Assembly: GCA_963718565.1 (NCBI GenBank)
Contig: OY970364.1
Span: forward strand, 64,001-128,000
DNA length: 64,000 nt
Reading direction: 5' to 3'
Source of the DNA: an uncultured Verrucomicrobiae bacterium
Lineage (GTDB): Bacteria; Chlamydiota; Chlamydiia; Chlamydiales; Rhabdochlamydiaceae
The notes beneath the pieces were generated by a model. It was not told where the DNA came from. It saw nothing but the letters and a program-made list of their open reading frames with translations, and did no database searches. Made by a program: the position numbers and the translations under genes. Positions 34,154 to 40,702 of the stretch are shown in pieces; within the stretch, counting starts at the first letter, position 1, and each line of letters starts with the position of its first letter.

Positions 34154-34912
34154 TTATTTATTCAAGGCTTTCCGCGAACCATATTGTATTGAGGAATAAC
34201 TTAAGTTTTCCCGAGTATTGGGAAACTCTTTTTCTAACATGGCAATCAAGTCTTTGGTCTTCTTTCGCATCGAATTTTGGCCTACAGGGCATTGACAAAC
34301 TATACGGTTAAACCCATACATTGTTGCAAATTCTCGGATCTCCTCTTCGGAGATATAAATGAACGGGCGGATAATAGTCACACCGTAATTTTGCATAGGA
34401 ACTTTTGGCAGCATCGCGGCAAATTCGCCCTTATGCAATAAATTCATCAGAAGAGTTTGCACGCTGTCGTCGCGGTGGTGCCCAAAAGCAACCGTAGTCG
34501 CTCCCACTTTCTTGGCGGCTTCAAAGATTAAGGTCCGCCTTTCTCGGGAACAACTATAACATTCCAGATTTTCTCTTTCCTGTTTGGAAGAGCAATTCAG
34601 AAACGTCACTCCCAGCTCGTTGCAAATTCCTTTTAAAAAATTCTCACCGACGCCGGCCCCGCAAGAAAAAGCCCCGCTGACATGGATCGCATAAAGCTCA
34701 AGCTCGGGCAGACCTCTTCCGGAGATCGCCTTGAGCAAATACAGCAAACTCAAACTATCCTTGCCCCCACTCAAAGCGATTGCAAGCTTTTTCACATCTT
34801 TGAGGAGCTCAAATTCATAAATTGCTTTGCGGCACATGCTTTCCAGTTTGCCGCCGAGATGGGTCCATGGAGGACGAGCAATGGGAAGGTGTAAACTTAA
34901 TATTTGGTTCAT
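34154..34912 (-). CDS. ttcA: tRNA 2-thiocytidine biosynthesis protein TtcA
   Basis: PP-loop SGGKDS; motifs CYSC.R.RR, GHHRDD, IIRP and CP. Confidence 0.88.
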   Translation of the reverse strand: MNQILSLHLPIARPPWTHLGGKLESMCRKAIYEFELLKDVKKLAIALSGGKDSLSLLYLLKAISGRGLPELELYAIHVSGAFSCGAGVGENFLKGICNELGVTFLNCSSKQERENLECYSCSRERRTLIFEAAKKVGATTVAFGHHRDDSVQTLLMNLLHKGEFAAMLPKVPMQNYGVTIIRPFIYISEEEIREFATMYGFNRIVCQCPVGQNSMRKKTKDLIAMLEKEFPNTRENLSYSSIQYGSRKALNK

Positions 34913-35025
34913 ATCCTTTAAAAATGAGAGCTGATTATACTTTTTTGCCCATTAACCTCTCTATGTTTTTACTAGACTTGAATCAATTTTTTACGATATT
35001 CTGACCGATTTTGAAGAGGTTTTAA

Positions 35026-35253
35026 ATGCAAAAAGTTGGAAGAAACGATCCCTGTCCTTGCGGGTCGGGTAAGAAATACAAAAAATGCTGTGAGCTGAAG
35101 CAGAAGCACAAAAAGCTGACTGCCGATGCCGTCTCAGCATCAGCCCCACAATCCGCCGCGACTCAGGAGACATCCAAAGTTTCTTCCCTTTTTTTTAAGC
35201 GCGCCTCGGCGCCCAAAGCTCCTCCTGAAGAACCTCCCAATCCAATCATGTGA
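35026..35253 (+). CDS. SEC-C motif protein
   Basis: [20 protein letters not shown]. Confidence 0.85.
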
Positions 35254-35300
35254 AATTCTTGAGAATAAAGCAGGCCTGTGTTAAACTTTCCATCTCTTAT

Positions 35301-35372
35301 GCTGGTGTAGCTCAATGGTAGAGCATCCGCCTTGTAAGCGGACGGTTGAGGGTTCAAGTCCTTTCGCCAGCA
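35301..35372 (+). tRNA. tRNA-Thr(TGT)
   Basis: gctggtg…cgccagca; anticodon arm tccgc-ctTGTaa-gcgga. Confidence 0.95.
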
Positions 35373-35390
35373 TCTTTTTTCTTCCGCATC

Positions 35391-35472
35391 GGGGGTGTCG
35401 CATAGTGGCAATTGCAAGGGACTGTAAATCCCTCGTCTTCGGACTACGCTGGTTCGAGTCCAGCCGCCCCCA
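35391..35472 (+). tRNA. tRNA-Tyr(GTA)
   Basis: gggggtg…cgccccca; anticodon arm aggga-ctGTAaa-tccct; long variable arm. Confidence 0.95.
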
Positions 35473-35478
35473 TAAGAA

Positions 35479-35504
35479 AAAATACCCGCTAACGCGGGTA
35501 TTTT
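35479..35504 (+). terminator. Intrinsic terminator after the tRNA pair
   Basis: aaaatacccgc-taac-gcgggtatttt. Confidence 0.75.
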
Positions 35505-35798
35505 CATTTATGGGGGCGAAGCAAGTGCCCTTTGGCACTTGCGTCTGGACTCGAAGTGAGAGAGCCTGCGACCGAACCGGAACGCTCTTTCGCCGAAGAA
35601 CGGCGAAAGAGGAGCCAGCCGCCCCCATTCTCTCTATGGAAATTGTCTTAAAATCAGATCAAATTTGATCCCAAAATAAACCCCTAATGGGGTGCTCAAG
35701 GGACAGCAATACTCGACAAATTCCCTTTCTGGGAAAAACTCTCAGTGGTCTAAAAGATCGAATGCTGTTAAAATCCATCCTTTACTTTAGGCCTCTGA

Positions 35799-36128
35799 AT
35801 GAACAGTTATTCCATTCCATCTAACATACAGAACCGTATTATTCTTTATACAGCGGCTGATGGAAAAGTCACTGCTGATGTCATCTTTGCTGAGGAGACA
35901 TTTTGGTTGACTCAACGTTCTATGGCTGAGTTATTTGGAGTGAATATACCGGCGATTTCAAAACATCTAAAAAATATTTATGAAAGTAAGGAGCTAAGCC
36001 CTGAGGCAACTATTTCCAAAATGGAAACAGTTCAAATGGAGGGGCAACGTCAAGTCGCACGGGAAGTTGAGGTTTATAACCTAGACGCGGCAATTGCAGT
36101 GGGGCGTTTTCTTACAGATGTTTCATAG
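35799..36128 (+). pseudogene. RhuM/virulence-family protein, N-terminal fragment
   Basis: Motifs FWLTQRSMAELFGV..PAISKHLKNIY and YNLDAAIAVG; truncated. Confidence 0.8.
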
Positions 36129-36305
36129 TATTTTTTCTTGATTTCTTCTGGCAGTGTTTCATAGGCACGTTGTAAAAAAGAACATAGCTCTTCGAGAAAA
36201 AGATATCGTGGATTGAACTGAAAGACCCTTGTTTTTCCTACTAGAGTGCTAGCAAGGACGCCACCTCTTTCAAGGCGTAGTAGCGCTTGCTGCATCGGTG
36301 AAAGG
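36074..36305 (-). pseudogene. Winged-helix regulator C-terminal fragment, cut at the IS607 left end
   Basis: LLRLERGGVL.S..VGKTRVFQFNPRY.FLEEL; N-terminus is missing. Confidence 0.55.
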
Positions 36306-36358
36306 GGCTTGTAACAGAATCCCTTGAACTTATTCAAACCTGATTATATATTATCAGA

Positions 36359-36781
36359 ATGAACAAGTTTTTAAGCATTCAGGAAGCAGCAAAATGTTTG
36401 GGAGTTTCTCCACAAACACTCCGCCGATGGGAAAGACACAAGAAAATCGTTTCCTGTCATCGCATACAGGGCAGCCAACGCCGCTATAGTCTCACTCAGT
36501 TACAGCCATTTAATTGCGGAGATAAAACCTCTGATCGTCTAACTGTTGCCTACGCAAGAGTTTCGAGTCATGATCAAAAAGAAGATTTACAACGACAAGT
36601 CCATATGTTAGAAATTTACTGCTTTGCAAAAGGATGGGTGTTTTCGGTAACCAAAGACCTCGGTTCCGGGATGAACTATAATAAACGTGGGCTAAAACAA
36701 CTGCTTGAGCAAAATGGTTCAAGAAGCCATAAGAACAAACAGCTTTTGGCCAACCTTCAAAATGCGGTCGCCAATGTCTAA
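36359..36781 (+). pseudogene. tnpA: IS607 serine transposase TnpA with an internal in-frame deletion
   Basis: Motifs EAAKCLGVS.QTLRRW, YARVSSHDQKEDL and DLGSGMNY are present, then the sequence jumps to GSRS. The DRL.R segment is missing; 140 aa. Confidence 0.8.
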
Positions 36782-38240
36782 AGAGAATCTGGTTCTTAAG
36801 CTGAGAATTGAAGCAGACCCTCAAACAATTTCTGAGCTCGATGGGCAATCGCGGATCTGTAATTGGCTTTATAATCATCTGCTAGAAAAAAGCCTGGAAC
36901 TCAAGCGGGAATTTATCCATTCCGGCAACCCGGAGGCATCAAAGACCCTCTATACAGAAAGAGGACTCAGAAATGAACTTCCAAAACTCAAGGAAGAGCA
37001 CCCCTTTCTAAAAGTCGTCCACTCTTCTCCATTAAAAAATACCGCTTTGAGACTTAGTGAAGCAATCCGGGTTCATCAAAAATCAAAAAAAGGAAAACGG
37101 AAAGGCAAACAGATGGGTTGGCCCAAATTTCGGGCCTGGAAACGGGACTGGTTTTCTCTTTTTTACGATGAACCAGAAAAAGGTTTCAAGATTCACGGCA
37201 AAGCCTTGTTCCTCTCCCTTGGAATGGGCCAGGACCGCAAGCGCCGCTTCCTCACTCTCGAATTACCCGAAGCACATCTCCTCAAAGACAAAACCCCACG
37301 CAACTTGCGCATTATCTCCGAACTGGGAACCTACTATGCCATTTTTACCATTCAGAAAGAACTCCCCATCCGAAAACCCATTTCTAAAATCCTCGCACTC
37401 GATCCCAATCACAAAAATCTCGCCTATGGTGTTGACACAAGTGGAACAGCCATTGAGATTGCATCTCCTCACTGGCTCAAAACTTACGATAAACGCCTGG
37501 ACGAACTAAAAAGTAAAAGAGACCGCTGTGATAAAAAATCTAAAAAATTCCATGTTCTGGATGAAAAAGGCAATCCCACAAGAAAAGAATTCCATCTTCC
37601 TTCCAGGCAATGGAGAAAATACGATCATGCCCTAAAAAGCGCACTGCGTAAACGCCGAGAACAGACCAAGACGTTTATGTTTACAAGCGCACATCGCCTT
37701 TTCCGAAATTACGACTGCATTGGAATCGGAGACTATACACCAAATGGCGAAGGCATTACTAAACCAATGCGGCGAGCGATGAATAACCGATCCTTGATTG
37801 GACGTTGGAAAAACACCCTCTCCTGGGTAGCTCGAAAATCGGGAAAAACCTTTATTGAATTCGACGAGAAAGGGACAACCCGGACCTGTAGCCACTGCCT
37901 GCGGATTGAAGAGCGGGGAATCCCTGTCTCATTGAGACAATGGCAATGTCCACAGTGCAAGACCGTTCACATTCGCGACGAGAATGCCGCAATTAATGGC
38001 TTGAGAAAGATCTTGCGAGATCTTTCAGCAAAAAATGAAGGAGGATATCCTTCAATAGTGTCTGGCTCAGACCTCGCTTTTATCCAAAAGCGATGGGCCT
38101 GGTGTGTTTTGCCTAATGGTGTACATGTGACACCGTGGGGGCAAGACAGCAAAGCAATTTGCAGCACCAGGAAATTAAACCGAGGGCATGATAGCCCTCG
38201 ATCAAAAGTTGATAATTTGGTTATATATGATCAGGTTTGA
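36774..38240 (+). CDS. tnpB: RNA-guided endonuclease TnpB (rearranged RuvC type)
   Basis: N-terminal KLRI…CNWLYN; GWPKFR; RuvC-I LALDP; zinc finger CSHC/CPQC; RuvC-III RDENAAIN. Confidence 0.9.
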   Translation: MSKENLVLKLRIEADPQTISELDGQSRICNWLYNHLLEKSLELKREFIHSGNPEASKTLYTERGLRNELPKLKEEHPFLKVVHSSPLKNTALRLSEAIRVHQKSKKGKRKGKQMGWPKFRAWKRDWFSLFYDEPEKGFKIHGKALFLSLGMGQDRKRRFLTLELPEAHLLKDKTPRNLRIISELGTYYAIFTIQKELPIRKPISKILALDPNHKNLAYGVDTSGTAIEIASPHWLKTYDKRLDELKSKRDRCDKKSKKFHVLDEKGNPTRKEFHLPSRQWRKYDHALKSALRKRREQTKTFMFTSAHRLFRNYDCIGIGDYTPNGEGITKPMRRAMNNRSLIGRWKNTLSWVARKSGKTFIEFDEKGTTRTCSHCLRIEERGIPVSLRQWQCPQCKTVHIRDENAAINGLRKILRDLSAKNEGGYPSIVSGSDLAFIQKRWAWCVLPNGVHVTPWGQDSKAICSTRKLNRGHDSPRSKVDNLVIYDQV

Positions 38241-38281
38241 TCAAGTTTTGAAGAGCGGGATGATTATTGCGAAATACTCTC

Positions 38282-40702
38282 CTATTGTGAGAGGATTTCA
38301 ATTCCGCTGATTTTAGGATTTTCGATAACTTTAATAAAGTTTATCTCAATATTGTTATTTGTGACGTTTACAGGAAAACTAAGGTCTAAAGGCTTTGCAA
38401 ACCCAACTTCTTTAAATATATCCAGATTTGAAATAACGTTTACCCCATTAATATTTACACCAAATACACGTAACCCTGCAGCATGAAAATAGATTTCTGC
38501 AAACTTTAAAATAACATATTTAGGTCCATTCGAAACAGGTATGTTATATGAAAAATCGCCATATCGCTCTGTTGTATAAACTCCAAGGCAAGTTGGCAAA
38601 GTAGTAATCAGTTTTGTTTGACCACCTGAATAATACTGATCAGCTTGCCAAGTTACACCGGTACACGAGTCTGTAAGTACATTACCACCAGTATTTATAT
38701 AATAGCTGCTTAAGGCGTTATTTGCCGTTACGGTCACAACACTTTGAGCGGAATTGCCCGCATTGTTATATGCAATTGCTTTAAGCGTATGCTGGCCATT
38801 TGATAACTCAGTTGTATCAAGTGTAGCTGTATAAGGTGCAGCTTTATCTGATACTATCAATGTAGAATCTACATAAAAATCTACATGTGTAATCATTCCT
38901 ACCGGATCTGAAGCATTAGCTGTGATAGTAATTTTACCACTCACTGTCGCGCCATTTGCAGGCGAAGTAATGCTCACATTTGGAATGTCTGTTGAAGAAT
39001 GCGTTAGGCTAGCAAATAAATTGGCTCCATTAAAAGAACCCCATCCCGAAGCATTATCATAACCTGGACCAGCTTGATAAAATAAATTGTTGCCCATTGT
39101 AATATCATGATAATCCAGTGTCTGTGAGGCTGCTGTAGTCCCGATAGTATAAAGTGGGGGATTCGCAAACCCTAATACCGACATCGCAGCAGCCTGGCGC
39201 TGCTCGTTAACAAGAGCGGTAAAGGCCGCCCAGAGAGGAGCTGCACAACTTGTACCACCATATATCGACCATTGCCCATTATAAAAAATGGCATAGCCCT
39301 TATGTTGATCTGCATTTAACGAAATATCAGGTACATTTCGATTGGTCTTTGAATATACGGTAGAGACGTTTGTTTGCCATGAAGGGATTGGCCATACGCT
39401 GCTCACACCGCCTCCGCCAGCTCCATTGCCAAGGCCGTCGTTCCAGACCGCTTCAGTCGCATAAGCGCCAGTGGTTGCATTCACGGTAAGGCTGGTCCCT
39501 CCAACTCCAACCATGTAAGGTTGAGAAGCTGGATCATTCACTACAAGATTCATATTATTGGGATAATCATCATAGGCGCCGCTATCACCAGCAGCAGCAT
39601 AAATGGTCTGCCCTTGAGCGGCCATCTGCTGAAAAATTGCGTTCTCTGCTTGAAGACTTTGCGAGCCTGCTTCATCTTCTCCCAATCCCCAGGAGGTGCT
39701 CACTTGTTTGGCTATGTTGTCTGTAGCAATCCGATTATATGTATCGAGAACGCCTTGACTGCTATTGGGGCCTTCGTATACGTAAACCTGACTCTGCGGA
39801 GCTAACGCCAGCACAAGCTCTATGTCAAGAGCTACTTCAGGATCAGGAACATTACCTGAACCGCCATCAACTAAAACATTTGTCAAATTAGCAGAGGGCA
39901 GGCCAAAATAGGTCGTATATGCAGTGATATCGCTTGCTAGGTATGCCCCAAGCTCAAATAGAGCAACCTTTTGACCAGAACCGTTTGCTGATACTCCGTT
40001 GAGATTATAAGCTGTCTTGACATCGTTGGGAGCGTAACCCCCTCCTGGGCCAGAAGGAAATGATGAAGCGTTTGGAGCATCTAACATTTCTTTGCTTATC
40101 TCTTGACGCCGATTGTAAGCATGCCAAACAGCAGAGTTGTCTAGACCCACGATCCCCTTGATGATGGAAGCGATGGCAGCAGGAACTTCAGGCTCATCAT
40201 CAGGAGCATAAAATTTCCGGCCGTTGGTTTGTTGGTACATATTGAGCTTGAGTTGAAAAGCGGCTTCAACAGATTTTGTAGGTCCACTCACATTCAGCAG
40301 TGTGCGATTAGGATGTGTACCGATAACATCCAAGCCTAATTCTTTAGCATAAGCAATGATTGCATCGTAATCCTCCTGAGTTGGAGCAAAATTCTTGATA
40401 AATTCTGCAGAGGTCAAATACTTGCCATAATGTTGCTGGTCAGCGGGATCATTGATCTGTTGGATGAGCCTCTCCAATGCTTTTTGGTTGCGCAAAGGCA
40501 AGACAAAGGTAATCGGAACAGGCGTATTGACATCAAGATGTTCCTTGAAAACAGCTTGGGATACTGCCTTGCTCGGAACATGACCTGAAAGTCTTACAGT
40601 GGATTGGTTAGAAGTTTTATCCAATGCAACACCTATATTTAGTGTGAGCATCAGCATAAATACCATCAGGTATCTTAAACATCCTAAGACGCTATTTTTC
40701 AT
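38282..40702 (-). CDS. Secreted S53 (sedolisin/kumamolisin) peptidase with Ig-like (Big) and malectin domains
   Basis: Signal peptide; pro-domain YGKYLT..EF...F.P; EVALD, AAAGDSG, GGTSCAAP and GYD.ASGWG; ITSPANGATVSG Ig domain; ERYG/FAEIY/RVF malectin motifs. Confidence 0.88.
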   Translation of the reverse strand: MKNSVLGCLRYLMVFMLMLTLNIGVALDKTSNQSTVRLSGHVPSKAVSQAVFKEHLDVNTPVPITFVLPLRNQKALERLIQQINDPADQQHYGKYLTSAEFIKNFAPTQEDYDAIIAYAKELGLDVIGTHPNRTLLNVSGPTKSVEAAFQLKLNMYQQTNGRKFYAPDDEPEVPAAIASIIKGIVGLDNSAVWHAYNRRQEISKEMLDAPNASSFPSGPGGGYAPNDVKTAYNLNGVSANGSGQKVALFELGAYLASDITAYTTYFGLPSANLTNVLVDGGSGNVPDPEVALDIELVLALAPQSQVYVYEGPNSSQGVLDTYNRIATDNIAKQVSTSWGLGEDEAGSQSLQAENAIFQQMAAQGQTIYAAAGDSGAYDDYPNNMNLVVNDPASQPYMVGVGGTSLTVNATTGAYATEAVWNDGLGNGAGGGGVSSVWPIPSWQTNVSTVYSKTNRNVPDISLNADQHKGYAIFYNGQWSIYGGTSCAAPLWAAFTALVNEQRQAAAMSVLGFANPPLYTIGTTAASQTLDYHDITMGNNLFYQAGPGYDNASGWGSFNGANLFASLTHSSTDIPNVSITSPANGATVSGKITITANASDPVGMITHVDFYVDSTLIVSDKAAPYTATLDTTELSNGQHTLKAIAYNNAGNSAQSVVTVTANNALSSYYINTGGNVLTDSCTGVTWQADQYYSGGQTKLITTLPTCLGVYTTERYGDFSYNIPVSNGPKYVILKFAEIYFHAAGLRVFGVNINGVNVISNLDIFKEVGFAKPLDLSFPVNVTNNNIEINFIKVIENPKISGIEILSQ

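Follow-up and report, generated by a model that had tools for sequence, protein, structure and literature searches.

An IS607-family element with a rearranged TnpB active site and a predicted omega-RNA in a chlamydial genome

A tnpB gene in the window, which is the whole stretch of 64,000 nucleotides analyzed here, raises the question of whether an IS607 element with a rearranged nuclease site encodes a working RNA-guided system, and of how close this system is to the Fanzors of eukaryotes and giant viruses. An earlier sequence-only reading had proposed an IS607 TnpB with a Fanzor-type RuvC site, a candidate omega-RNA and a role of its intracellular host as a conduit to eukaryotes and giant viruses. 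We consider it quite likely that positions 36304 to 38258 are a non-autonomous IS607 element with a TnpB of the alternative-Glu ("Ealt") type, a 3' omega-RNA and a guide predicted to come from the flank. The features of this element are listed in Table 1.

Table 1. Position of the element and its features in the window
Feature	Position	Strand	Remarks
Whole IS607-family element, non-autonomous derivative	36304..38258	+	1955 bp; from blastn against own genome
Left end, including the GG crossover dinucleotide expected for IS607	36304..36358	+	Starts GGGGCTTGTAACAG
tnpA remnant, 140 aa	36359..36781	+	MerR-type HTH and first ~58 residues of the serine-recombinase catalytic domain
tnpB ORF, 488 aa	36774..38240	+	ATG overlaps tnpA stop; stop codon 38238-38240
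RuvC-I Asp D210, ILALDPNHKN (motif DPNHKN)	37401..37403	+	Invariant; end of model strand 206-211
G319 at canonical RuvC-II Glu position, CIGIGDY	37728..37730	+	End of model strand 315-319
Alternative RuvC-II Glu E365, FDEKGTTRTC	37866..37868	+	E365-x6-C372; two residues past model strand 359-363
C4 zinc finger C372, C375, C392, C395	37887..37958	+	C372, C375 and C395 invariant, C392 nearly so (56 sequences)
RuvC-III Asp D402, RDENAA	37977..37979	+	R401, D402 and N404 invariant; aligns with ISDra2 TnpB D361
Dual-use stretch, codons ~416-456	38019..38141	+	Conserved C-terminal protein segment overlapping the 5' half of the omega-RNA
Optional upstream hairpin GAAGGA / TCCTTC	38037..38053	+	In most relatives, not all; outside the RNAalifold consensus and uncounted there
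Predicted omega-RNA (reRNA) scaffold core, ~200 nt	38056..38258	+	Covariation; final GG at 38257-38258
Last ~32 ORF codons, read-through over omega-RNA	38142..38240	+	Without protein-level constraint
Hairpin of the sequence-only reading, 7 bp, loop ATGATA	38181..38200 (38181-38187 / 38194-38200)	+	Consensus helices 6 and 7
Predicted guide-encoding flank, first ~16-20 nt outside the element	38259..38278	+	Inferred from the TnpB/IS607 mechanism as described by Yoon et al. (PMC10711439) and 14 variable junctions

Ends, copies and transposase of the element

The blastn search of the element's own genome retrieved seven full 1955-bp copies with 99.4 to 100% identity and different flanks, one copy that is interrupted near the right end, and many fragments. 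None of the 15 left and 14 right junctions in this genome shared its flank with another. The left junction was GGGG in 14 of the 15 cases and AGGG in one, and the right end, ...GAAGAGCGG, was common to all 14 junctions, with GCGG as its last letters and diverging sequences beyond. The element thus has GG at both ends, unrelated flanks and no longer conserved target, as expected for IS607; GG crossover dinucleotides at IS607 ends are described in the legend to Fig. 3 of Yoon et al. (PMC10711439). The same start, GGGGC...AACAG, was also present in three multi-copy groups of other genomes. The sequence-only reading had assigned positions 36774 to 38275 and placed the right end near gagcGG. This right end proved accurate, and the element stops exactly at 38258, so that 38275 is 17 nt too far.

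As compared with two 206-aa copies, the tnpA of the window has an in-frame 198-bp (66-aa) deletion after window position 36713, and the missing block, which contains the DRLLRFG stretch, would correspond to the core of the catalytic domain. The remaining protein had Pfam matches to MerR and Resolvase, the latter restricted to profile positions 2-58 of 145, and matched NF033518 over profile positions 2-114 of 187 with 108.5 bits (cut-off, 110); the full-length copies elsewhere in the genome scored 214 to 217 bits. Related loci with a complete upstream flank numbered 65; an IS607-type TnpA directly upstream was full-length in 34 of them, partial in 14 and absent in 17. On the basis of these 34 loci and the full-length tnpA copies, the element family qualifies as IS607, of which the window copy is a defective member.

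The genome contains eight intact, near-identical tnpB frames without stops, all associated with the tnpA deletion, as well as ~10 broken tnpB fragments. The short form of tnpA was found in 10 copies, and both full-length tnpA copies are accompanied by a broken tnpB. There are thus two kinds of copies, namely, those that kept tnpA and the omega-RNA and lost tnpB (2 copies) versus those that kept tnpB and have the tnpA deletion (8 copies), and IS607 copies with complementary defects can be present side by side in one genome. Since the core of the catalytic domain appears to be lost, the element would depend for its mobilization on one of the two full-length tnpA copies, acting in trans.

No conserved base upstream of GGGG that would point to a TAM was observed at the 15 left junctions. 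In the search for an empty site, the match between the left flank of one copy and relatives from the same genus was restricted to a gene 950 nt away, and the right flank of another copy had no match in five relatives. An open reading frame test on joined flanks preferred the arrangement flank+GG+flank and was dropped as unconvincing, because the continuing frame passes through a terminator-like stretch. A solo right-end fragment beside a palindromic repeat was also considered as an empty site and was discarded, its junctions being ambiguous.

The rearranged active site of TnpB

TnpB was recognized by the NCBIfam model NF040570 (guided_TnpB) with 137.6 bits (cut-off, 100) over residues 9-412, and by PF07282 over residues 345-408. 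The score with NF038280 (IS607_TnpB), an "exception"-type model for a narrower subfamily, was 61.6 bits, far under its cut-off of 350. The AlphaFold2 model of the protein had a pLDDT of 86.7 and a pTM of 0.79.

The sequence-only reading had noted a Pro after the RuvC-I Asp, the sequence IGIGDY at the canonical RuvC-II Glu position, a Glu just before the zinc finger and an intact RDENAA motif in RuvC-III, and each of these observations was borne out. D210 is followed by Pro, G319 faces the Glu at chain position 278 (iigtEhl) of ISDra2 TnpB (8bf8_A) in a phmmer alignment, E365 is found six residues ahead of the zinc finger, and D402 is present. E365 aligns with E467 of chain 9b0l_P, the mimivirus L79 Fanzor2, and the mutation E467A abolishes cleavage by mimivirus Fanzor2 (ApmFanzor2), as reported by Jiang et al. 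(PMC10530073). In an alignment of 56 homologues with identities down to 25% (alignment A2), D210, G319, E365 and R401-D402-N404 were invariant and N212 was at least 90% conserved; the motif DPNHKN was invariant in all 20 closest sequences (alignment A1). The protein thus contains the RuvC triad D210, E365 (at the alternative position) and D402 along with the four Cys, and the topology of the model fits. This supports the earlier classification as an IS607-family TnpB with the Ealt arrangement, which is found in Fanzors too. TnpB would be an RNA-guided endonuclease of the Ealt type, in which the Glu of the triad is located after beta-5 and not on beta-4.

The exchange of Glu for Gly with a compensating Glu is a feature of the largest branch of rearranged TnpBs as described by Altae-Tran et al. 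2023 (PMC10691335), and G319 and E365 correspond at the residue level to this RIIr-5 type. In the rearranged TnpBs, which include RIIr (PMC10691335) and TnpB2/TvTnpB (Jiang et al. 2023, PMC10530073), Gly replaces the RuvC-II Glu as in the window protein, and the alternative Glu is likewise ~45 residues downstream, just ahead of the zinc finger. RNA-guided nuclease activity in the absence of collateral activity has been reported for these proteins (PMC10691335, PMC10530073), and for TvTnpB activity was demonstrated by experiment (PMC10530073). TvTnpB is archaeal and associated with IS605 (PMC10530073), whereas the window TnpB is bacterial and belongs to IS607.

The predicted omega-RNA and the end of the protein

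The RNAalifold analysis of 32 homologous loci resulted in 50 pairs, 33 of which showed compensatory changes. Paired cells amounted to 93.9%, as compared with 43 to 49% when the partners were slid, changes on both sides were seen in 34 pairs versus 18 to 21 after sliding, and none of 500 shuffles attained any of these measures. The closing helix is formed by 38065-38068 (GCTC) and 38253-38256 (GAGC). Conserved G-U pairs, present for example in 28 of the 32 loci at columns 104/133, fit plus-strand RNA only. In the hairpin cgagggc-atgata-gccctcg, already recognized in the sequence-only reading, all seven pairs change on both sides among the 32 loci; considering these compensatory changes and the invariance of the active site, both the hairpin and the rearranged site are more than chance. 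The arms of the optional upstream hairpin are complementary and vary between relatives (alignments A3 and A4).

The earlier proposal of an omega-RNA over the 3' region of the ORF is thus strengthened by strong covariation, and the 3' boundary is where it had been placed, at GAGCGG (38258). Similarity stopped sharply after GCGG in all 18 aligned loci. Judged from the sequence alone, the element has a structured 3' omega/reRNA that reaches the transposon right end, with a variable guide position beyond. The tnpB transcript would bear this ~200-nt structured RNA in its 3' part and, because the scaffold end ...GAGCGG is the right end of the element, the next ~16-20 nt of flanking DNA would become the guide. 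The 16-nt sequences that follow the 14 right ends had no other GG-preceded match in the genome with up to two mismatches. An Rfam search over positions 34500-39500 gave no match to an omega-RNA family at E values up to 1, and two tRNAs were the only families at gathering score. Two metatranscriptomes shared 0.12 and 0.05 of the sampled words; their contigs were mostly 90 to 95% alike, indicative of relatives, and do not span the omega-RNA, so that they are neutral as to an RNA.

The ORF had been noted to extend ~80 aa past RuvC-III, and we counted 86 aa after D402. As the ORF spans the conserved 3' 200 nt, this stretch might be the right DNA end with recombinase sites, or a C-terminal protein domain, with no RNA involved. 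It is true that TnpA has to recognize the IS607 ends, that three deletion derivatives retain the element from position ~1738-1752 through the right end, and that residues 439-455 were confidently modeled as a beta-hairpin within the dual-use stretch (pLDDT of 73-87 for residues 431-450). However, Watson-Crick and G-U pairs of the plus strand are kept, which is explained neither by duplex DNA sites nor by coding, and the frame is lost past about codon 449-466. The shared reading frame was seen in 30 of the 32 rows at alignment column 108, in 24 at column 135 and in 10 by column 185, with stops scattered over columns 136-268. Codons ~416-456 showed a dS of 0.22-0.64, lower than the 0.9-1.8 upstream, and a dN/dS of 0.22-0.51. 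In the last ~32 codons, dN/dS was 0.4-3.3, i.e., about 1, and residues 459-488 had a pLDDT below 50. An explanation through DNA sites or protein only is, in our view, hardly conceivable. Protein constraint is confined to the first ~450-465 codons, the rest of the ORF is read-through over the RNA, and the functional length of TnpB is about 455 aa. This limit, the tnpA deletion and the split of the copies are additions to the sequence-only reading.

A well-described system of this kind is ISXfa1 of Xylella fastidiosa (Yoon et al. 2023, PMC10711439), which, like the window element, is an IS607 element with a serine-recombinase TnpA and the GG crossover at both ends. According to the same source, its reRNA is structured, overlaps the tnpB 3' end, continues into the flank and contains a fixed right-flank G in the scaffold, to which we liken the invariant GCGG at the scaffold end of the window element. 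The ISXfa1 reRNA has a length of ~150 nt and the TAM is GGG (PMC10711439), as compared with a conserved core of ~200 nt in the window, where, in addition, tnpA is internally deleted. By analogy with characterized TnpBs, the ribonucleoprotein may cut the empty donor site left by excision. This site would have a G-rich TAM beside the guide match, probably with GG or GGG, and repair from a sister copy would restore the element, resulting in its retention or in homing.

The number of copies might instead reflect a recent burst of a non-autonomous element mobilized by TnpA, in which tnpB is carried along as an inactive or decaying passenger or has been domesticated as a regulator. The canonical Glu is gone, every tnpB-bearing copy has a deleted tnpA, the genome also contains the broken tnpB fragments mentioned above, and near-identical copies alone are no proof of selection. 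Across species, however, codons 1-415 are under purifying selection, with a dN/dS of 0.07-0.08 at a dS of 0.9-1.8 in the comparisons with four of the five equal-length relatives (dS was saturated for the fifth). Furthermore, there is no or almost no variation at the catalytic and zinc finger positions down to 25% identity, compensatory changes maintain the omega-RNA structure, the guide position is variable, as it would be for a working guide system, and Ealt nucleases were reported to be active by experiment (PMC10530073). We consider such a passenger status unlikely. Considering the eight intact near-identical copies and the low dN/dS, an active TnpB is plausible.

Relationship to Fanzors and host range

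The sequence-only reading had also suggested a special kinship with Fanzors. TnpB would then be a "pro-Fanzor," a relative or ancestor of the eukaryotic and giant-virus Fanzors, for which a chlamydial host that shares amoebae may have served as the conduit. The two groups have the alternative Glu in common, with E365 opposite E467 of Fanzor2, and in the window protein the RuvC-I Asp is followed by Pro, the association is with IS607, as described for Fanzor2 (PMC10530073), and the host is intracellular. The published Fanzor fingerprint combines DPG with Ealt (Yoon et al., PMC10711439). The alternative Glu precedes the first CxxC by six residues in the window TnpB as well, and the remainder of the regular expression fits, with 16 residues between the CxxC pairs and 6 to the Asp, but RuvC-I is DPN instead of DPG in all 20 sequences. 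Since the regular expressions of Yoon et al. demanded D-P-G or D-x-G (PMC10711439), the DPN proteins would have slipped through this published screen for Fanzor relatives. In distant proteins of the same clade, the motif reads DQN, DLN or DFN, so that the Pro is not a shared derived mark. The Fanzor2-like rows scanned had DPG or DLG, rarely DIG, DMG, DGG or DAG, and never DPN; this alternation of DPG and DLG indicates that the Pro is of little phylogenetic value.

Profile scores and fold were not nearer to Fanzor2 than to ISDra2 TnpB. The A2 profile (56 sequences) gave 119.8 bits for ISDra2 TnpB versus 94.4 for Fanzor2, and the corresponding values for the A1 profile (20 closest sequences) were 47.5 and 49.1 bits. 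In the Foldseek search, ISDra2 TnpB 8h1j ranked first (TM 0.80, E 2.3e-18), and Fanzor2 was sixteenth (TM 0.57). The phylogeny that the sequence-only reading had proposed as a check was calculated in a "quick" search from 79 hand-picked proteins, without named pro-Fanzor or Fanzor1 rows, and showed no grouping of the chlamydial sequences with the Fanzor2-like clade. They form a terminal twig in a 37-row prokaryotic clade (support 99), which includes rows with relatives from records titled Bacillaceae, Chloroflexota, Acidobacteriota and archaea. The Ealt rows were kept together relative to the Ecan outgroup (support 93), and the DPN clade together with five DxG rows forms the half opposite the Fanzor2-like clade, an arrangement that would favor kinship. 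However, the stem of the Fanzor2-like clade measures 1.6 substitutions per site, and the AU test rejected a union of this clade with the chlamydial sequences (delta lnL 80.4, p 0.00018). A pro-Fanzor identity is thus very unlikely, and the idea of a conduit to eukaryotes and giant viruses finds no support, the chlamydial twig being deep in the prokaryotic clade. As far as can be told from sequence comparison, the TnpB is a member of a known and widespread bacterial group within the large DxNH(K)N/Ealt clade of prokaryotes, which is distinct from the Fanzor2-like clade, and the window element leaves the current picture of Fanzor origins unchanged.

Direct comparison with the known proteins is in agreement with this placement. 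Fanzor2 (Acanthamoeba polyphaga mimivirus L79, PDB 9b0l) shares with the window TnpB the Gly at the canonical Glu position (IGK versus IGD), the alternative Glu at the same alignment position, the C4 zinc finger, RDEN and an IS607-type partner. It differs in that the single-sequence match reached only 30 bits, in its lower profile score (94 versus 120 bits for ISDra2 TnpB), in its position in a separate clade behind a long stem, and in its host, a virus or eukaryote. The cyanobacterial "pro-Fanzors" (Yoon et al. 2023), compared here by description, are likewise IS607 TnpBs of bacteria in which Ealt is combined with a Pro following the RuvC-I Asp, but their defining marks are DPG and a common group with Fanzor2, whereas the window family has DPN and is outside the Fanzor2-like clade. 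ISDra2 TnpB (PDB 8h1j, 8exa, 8bf8), the best structural match and the best profile match with A2, resembles the window protein in domain order and in the overlap of its omega-RNA with the gene's 3' end. Where the window protein has Gly, ISDra2 TnpB retains the canonical Glu; its RuvC-I motif is D-hydrophobic-G, and its context is IS200/IS605, with a Y1 transposase and single-strand transposition.

The assumption of an intracellular host agrees with our data. The closest relatives are chlamydial MAGs, and the genome contains at least four full-length TLC nucleotide transporter genes, as compared with none in 14 control genomes. We regard an obligate intracellular life of the host bacterium as very probable. 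One may combine these observations in the doubtful proposal that, among bacteria, the DxNH(K)N/Ealt clade, which is largely IS607-associated, is the nearest large sister group to the Fanzor2-like lineage as a whole, was missed by motif screens, and is now expanding in an amoeba-type intracellular symbiont. If this were true, Fanzor2 would have arisen from a bacterial pool that is not limited to cyanobacteria and extends to bacteria living in the same host cells as giant viruses. Independently of this, and equally doubtful, the split into 8 versus 2 copies would illustrate in a natural setting that persistence is driven by TnpB and not by the transposase.

The element provides a further well-defined example of an Ealt-type TnpB, probably active, whose predicted omega-RNA is clearly delimited and whose scaffold/guide boundary is exact. 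Collateral cleavage is reportedly absent in Ealt-type enzymes, which are of interest as compact editors. In the literature that pairs "TnpB" with "chlamydia," we found no work devoted to chlamydial TnpBs, as judged from matches at the level of titles, and in a wider literature search neither "IS607" nor "TnpB" was among the matches listed. The TnpB family of the window spans many bacterial phyla, and TnpB was present in 103 of the 301 environmental Chlamydiota genomes sampled. TnpB is thus common in environmental Chlamydiota, contrary to an earlier census that is said to have called the phylum TnpB-poor.

Identity and active site of the TnpB

The 488-residue ORF of the element is a TnpB, with a match of 137.6 bits to NF040570 (cut-off, 100) and a further match to PF07282; the narrower IS607_TnpB model, NF038280, gave 61.6 bits, far under its cut-off of 350. 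The sequence-only reading held that the RuvC-II glutamate had moved to a position just before the zinc finger (Ealt), and this was borne out by alignment to proteins of solved structure. In the alignment to ISDra2 TnpB (8bf8_A), the Glu at chain position 278 is matched by G319 of the IGIGDY motif and D361 by D402; in that to the mimivirus L79 Fanzor2 (9b0l_P), IGIGDY is aligned with ICIGKL and E365 with residue 467. Nine residues (D210, G319, E365, C372, C375, C395, R401, D402, and N404) are invariant in 56 homologues down to 25% identity. In an AlphaFold2 model built from the alignment of these homologues (pLDDT 86.7, pTM 0.79), D210 ends a strand, G319 ends the next catalytic strand, E365 is two residues past strand 359-363, and D402 begins a helix. 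The predicted topology is the one expected of RNase H, with the Glu shifted one strand on.

The substitutions D324A and E467A are reported to kill ApmFNuc, whereas TvTnpB, a TnpB with the same rearrangement, is reported to be active as a TAM-dependent nuclease and to lack collateral activity (Jiang et al., PMC10530073). Glu-to-Gly replacement with a compensating Glu is described as the largest branch of rearranged TnpBs (Altae-Tran et al., PMC10691335). Overall, the initial observation holds, its annotation has been made precise, and biologically the system belongs to a known class.

Coordinates of the element and associated features (window positions, or positions on the contig of the same genome, C1, and on the loci L016, L020, and L147)
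Feature	Position	Strand	Basis or remark
tRNA gene	35301-35372		Rfam, 71.9 bits
tRNA gene	35391-35472		Rfam, 56.8 bits
109-aa ORF	35799-36128		RhuM virulence-protein N-terminus, 27.4 bits, under cut-off
Whole element, 1955 bp	36304-38258	+	blastn vs own genome
tnpA remnant ORF, 140 aa	36359-36781	+	ORF list and sequence
tnpB ORF, 488 aa	36774-38240	+	ATG overlaps stop of the 140-aa ORF
Full-length tnpA copy	C1:48414-48968	-
Full-length tnpA copy	C1:1529877-1530769	-
Deletion derivative	C1:888343-888560		starts at element position 1738
Deletion derivative	C1:1190630-1190833	-	starts at element position 1752
Deletion derivative	C1:1529877-1530082	-	starts at element position 1750
~1.1-kb insertion	L020:3427-4482 (about C1:191126-192241)	-	at element position 1924 of an otherwise intact copy
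~70-bp palindromic repeat	C1:20549-20650		example
~175-bp repeat	L016:550-723 (C1:1966179-1966352)
DPG + Ealt tnpB	L147:1110-2276		27-kb, virus-sized IMG/VR contig

Relation to Fanzors and distribution in the phylum

Yoon et al. (PMC10711439) give DPG plus Ealt as the Fanzor fingerprint and use the name pro-Fanzors for the IS607 TnpBs of cyanobacteria that carry it; their regular expressions require a Gly two residues past the RuvC-I Asp. The RuvC-I motif is DPNHKN throughout the near family of our TnpB. In the 150 best cluster representatives it is more frequent than any other form, although DQN, DLN, and DFN are also seen, and it is carried by loci whose records are titled Bacillaceae, Anaerolineae, Acidobacteriota, Methanohalobium, and others. 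Because of the Gly requirement this DPN family would escape the screen, and kinship with Fanzors therefore deserved a real test.

Searches with the single sequence scored ISDra2 TnpB at 33.1 bits versus 30.1 bits for Fanzor2, and those with the profile of 56 homologues at 119.8 versus 94.4 bits; with the profile of the 20 closest sequences the scores were 47.5 and 49.1 bits, respectively. Foldseek placed ISDra2 TnpB first (TM 0.80) and Fanzor2 sixteenth (TM 0.57). We then considered a tree of 79 hand-picked sequences, namely, our TnpB, 36 others of the DPN clade, 5 other D-x-G sequences with Ealt, 31 Fanzor2-like sequences (5 of them named), and an outgroup of 6 TnpBs with the canonical Glu. 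Giant-virus homologues were gathered by motif pattern; one, on a 1.26-Mb contig, scored 360 bits to L79, and its relatives include proteins that their sources attribute to Megavirus chiliensis, Cotonvirus japonicus, mamavirus, and Megavirus courdo11. The tree (IQ-TREE "quick" mode, LG+C20, SH-aLRT support only) has long branches and contains no named pro-Fanzor or Fanzor1. The Fanzor2-like sequences form one clade (support 100, stem 1.6), and a second (95) unites the DPN clade (99, 37 sequences) with the five D-x-G sequences; our TnpB sits in the DPN clade, at the tip of a chlamydial twig. Forcing the chlamydial and Fanzor2-like sequences together, with a row set written after the tree had been seen, cost 80.4 log-likelihood units (AU p 0.00018). 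This grouping, the hypothesis of the sequence-only reading, is not supported by the tree; the motif is DPN and not DPG. Since DPG and DLG alternate among the Fanzor2-like sequences, Pro is weakened further as a Fanzor marker. A small TnpB family with DPG and Ealt (IGIGDL, NVNERGTTKTC; L147 and proteins P0271-P0273) scores 165 bits to the DPN-family profile and falls on the DPN side of the tree, not the Fanzor2-like side.

Of the 13 best loci, 8 come from records titled Chlamydiae or Chlamydiales, as do 19 of the 80 retained; some close relatives are filed under different MAG labels. Five genes of the genome match the TLC nucleotide-transporter family, four over the full length, and 0 of 14 control genomes has any. 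An obligate intracellular lifestyle can therefore be inferred with good support; the sequence-only reading had taken the host to be a probable intracellular bacterium. The TnpB family itself is patchy: of 60 further genomes from the same GTDB family, 5 have one or two matches each (E <=1e-20). Across the phylum, TnpBs as a whole are common, with a guided_TnpB match in 103 of the 301 genomes sampled, our own counted (87 over the curated cut-off), a result that sits uneasily with the description of Chlamydiae as TnpB-poor (PMC10691335). These matches are mostly ~380 aa long and exceed 300 bits, unlike the family studied here.

The predicted omega-RNA and the tail of tnpB

In 18 aligned loci the region 3' of RuvC-III is strongly conserved up to GCGG, with no conservation beyond. 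A motif search recovered an ...AGAGCGG-type end from 53 of the 70 related loci whose RuvC-III is recognizable, and several of the others show visible variants. RNAalifold predicted 50 pairs in 8 helices from 32 non-identical loci, 33 pairs having compensatory changes. Paired cells amounted to 93.9%, compared with 42.9-49.0% when partners were slid by 1-3 columns; pairs changed on both sides numbered 34 versus 18-21, and cells with such changes 258 versus 36-63. None of 500 shuffles, a control inflated by relatedness, matched any covariation measure. Although the structure on which covariation was counted comes from that very alignment, the observed values lie far above the slid controls. The hairpin picked out from the sequence corresponds to helices 6 and 7 of the consensus, and 7/7 of its pairs covary. 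The closing helix (38065-38068/38253-38256) is invariant, so covariation speaks neither for nor against it. Conserved G-U pairs are frequent and consistent with an RNA of the plus strand.

The tnpB frame runs into this RNA. It is kept in 30 of 32 rows at column 108 (window ~38118, codon ~449), the two exceptions being frameshifted further upstream already, in 24 at column 135 (~38141), and in only 10 at column 185 (~38168); stops are spread across columns 136-268. Nei-Gojobori dN/dS against five equal-length relatives was 0.07-0.08 for codons 1-415 (dS 0.9-1.8, one pair saturated), 0.22-0.51 for codons 416-456 (dS 0.22-0.64), and 0.4-3.3 for codons 457-488 (dS 0.05-0.50). In the AlphaFold2 model, residues 439-455 form a confidently predicted beta-hairpin, and the chain is disordered from 459 onward. 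Taken together, these data indicate that ~40 codons serve both protein and RNA; the final ~32 are read-through without protein constraint.

Copies, ends, and mobility

The 2.28-Mb genome, a single contig, harbors 7 full-length copies of 1955 bp (99.4-100% identity) and many fragments, as well as one copy broken by the ~1.1-kb insertion. There are 8 stop-free TnpB frames, matched over 488/488 residues in 7 cases and 486/488 in one, and 10 partial matches. The insertion encodes a 351-aa transposase (DDE_3 and HTH_33), which we take to be IS630-like, and splits the 3' part of the omega-RNA of its host copy. The three deletion derivatives or fragments are independent, begin within <=15 nt of one another, where the conserved omega-RNA has its 5' edge, and all reach the right end.

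All 14 right junctions read ...GAAGAGCGG followed by unrelated sequence, so that the right end first placed near gagcGG is exact, in agreement with the blastn limits. Among 15 left junctions, 14 start GGGGCTTGTAACAG and one AGGG. No bases are conserved outside the ends at these 15 left and 14 right junctions. The left GGGG can be read as GG of the target plus GG of the element, or, slightly favored, as a putative (G/A)GGG target with the element starting at CTTG. The TAM is reported as GGG for ISXfa1 (Yoon et al., PMC10711439) and TGGG for ApmFNuc (Jiang et al., PMC10530073). With a start at CTTG, the empty site would offer a putative GGG TAM, and the occupied right junction (CGG) would stay uncut. 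By analogy with characterized TnpBs and ISXfa1, tnpB mRNA would yield, after processing, an omega-RNA with GCGG at the end of its scaffold, the flank directly beyond would act as guide, TnpB would cut the matching empty site beside the TAM, and repair off the sister chromosome would bring the element back.

The 140-aa ORF is a fragment of an IS607-type serine recombinase, with a MerR HTH and a resolvase domain of which the first 58 profile positions are present; NF033518 is matched at positions 2-114 of 187. This short form occurs in 10 copies, including ours, and a full TnpA of 206 aa (positions 2-187; 214-217 bits) in 2 others. The two forms differ by a single in-frame 198-bp deletion after element position 410 (window 36713), which takes out 66 residues; the catalytic domain thereby loses its DRLLRFG stretch, among others. 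Both full-length tnpA copies are paired with a defective tnpB: one retains only residues 1-180, with two stops and no right end, and in the other, a ~0.9-kb mini-element, tnpB is deleted in frame and tnpA is followed by the terminal 206 bp, which hold the omega-RNA and the right end. Each of the 8 intact tnpB genes lies downstream of a deleted tnpA (8 of the 10 short copies). The element occurs in complementary defective forms within one genome; as the simplest reading, we infer that a non-autonomous, tnpB-bearing derivative spread recently with TnpA supplied in trans. The deletion was seen as a split match in 0 of 80 related loci; where the full upstream flank was present (65 loci), the TnpA homologue was full length in 34, partial in 14, and absent in 17.

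Upstream of the element, at a distance of ~830 nt, are the two tRNA genes, and the intervening 109-aa ORF, with its weak RhuM match, may be what is left of an integrated element. The ~70-bp palindromic repeat occurs in at least 29 places of the genome and also adjoins a solo IS607 right end at C1:888561. In at least 10 places the right half of the repeat is fused to a different repeated end, always at the same breakpoint, and in one case it is fused to the IS607 right end; the repeat may represent a hot spot for insertions or a small mobile hairpin element. The ~175-bp repeat has internal inverted symmetry, and dozens of copies of it occur both here and in relatives of the same genus.
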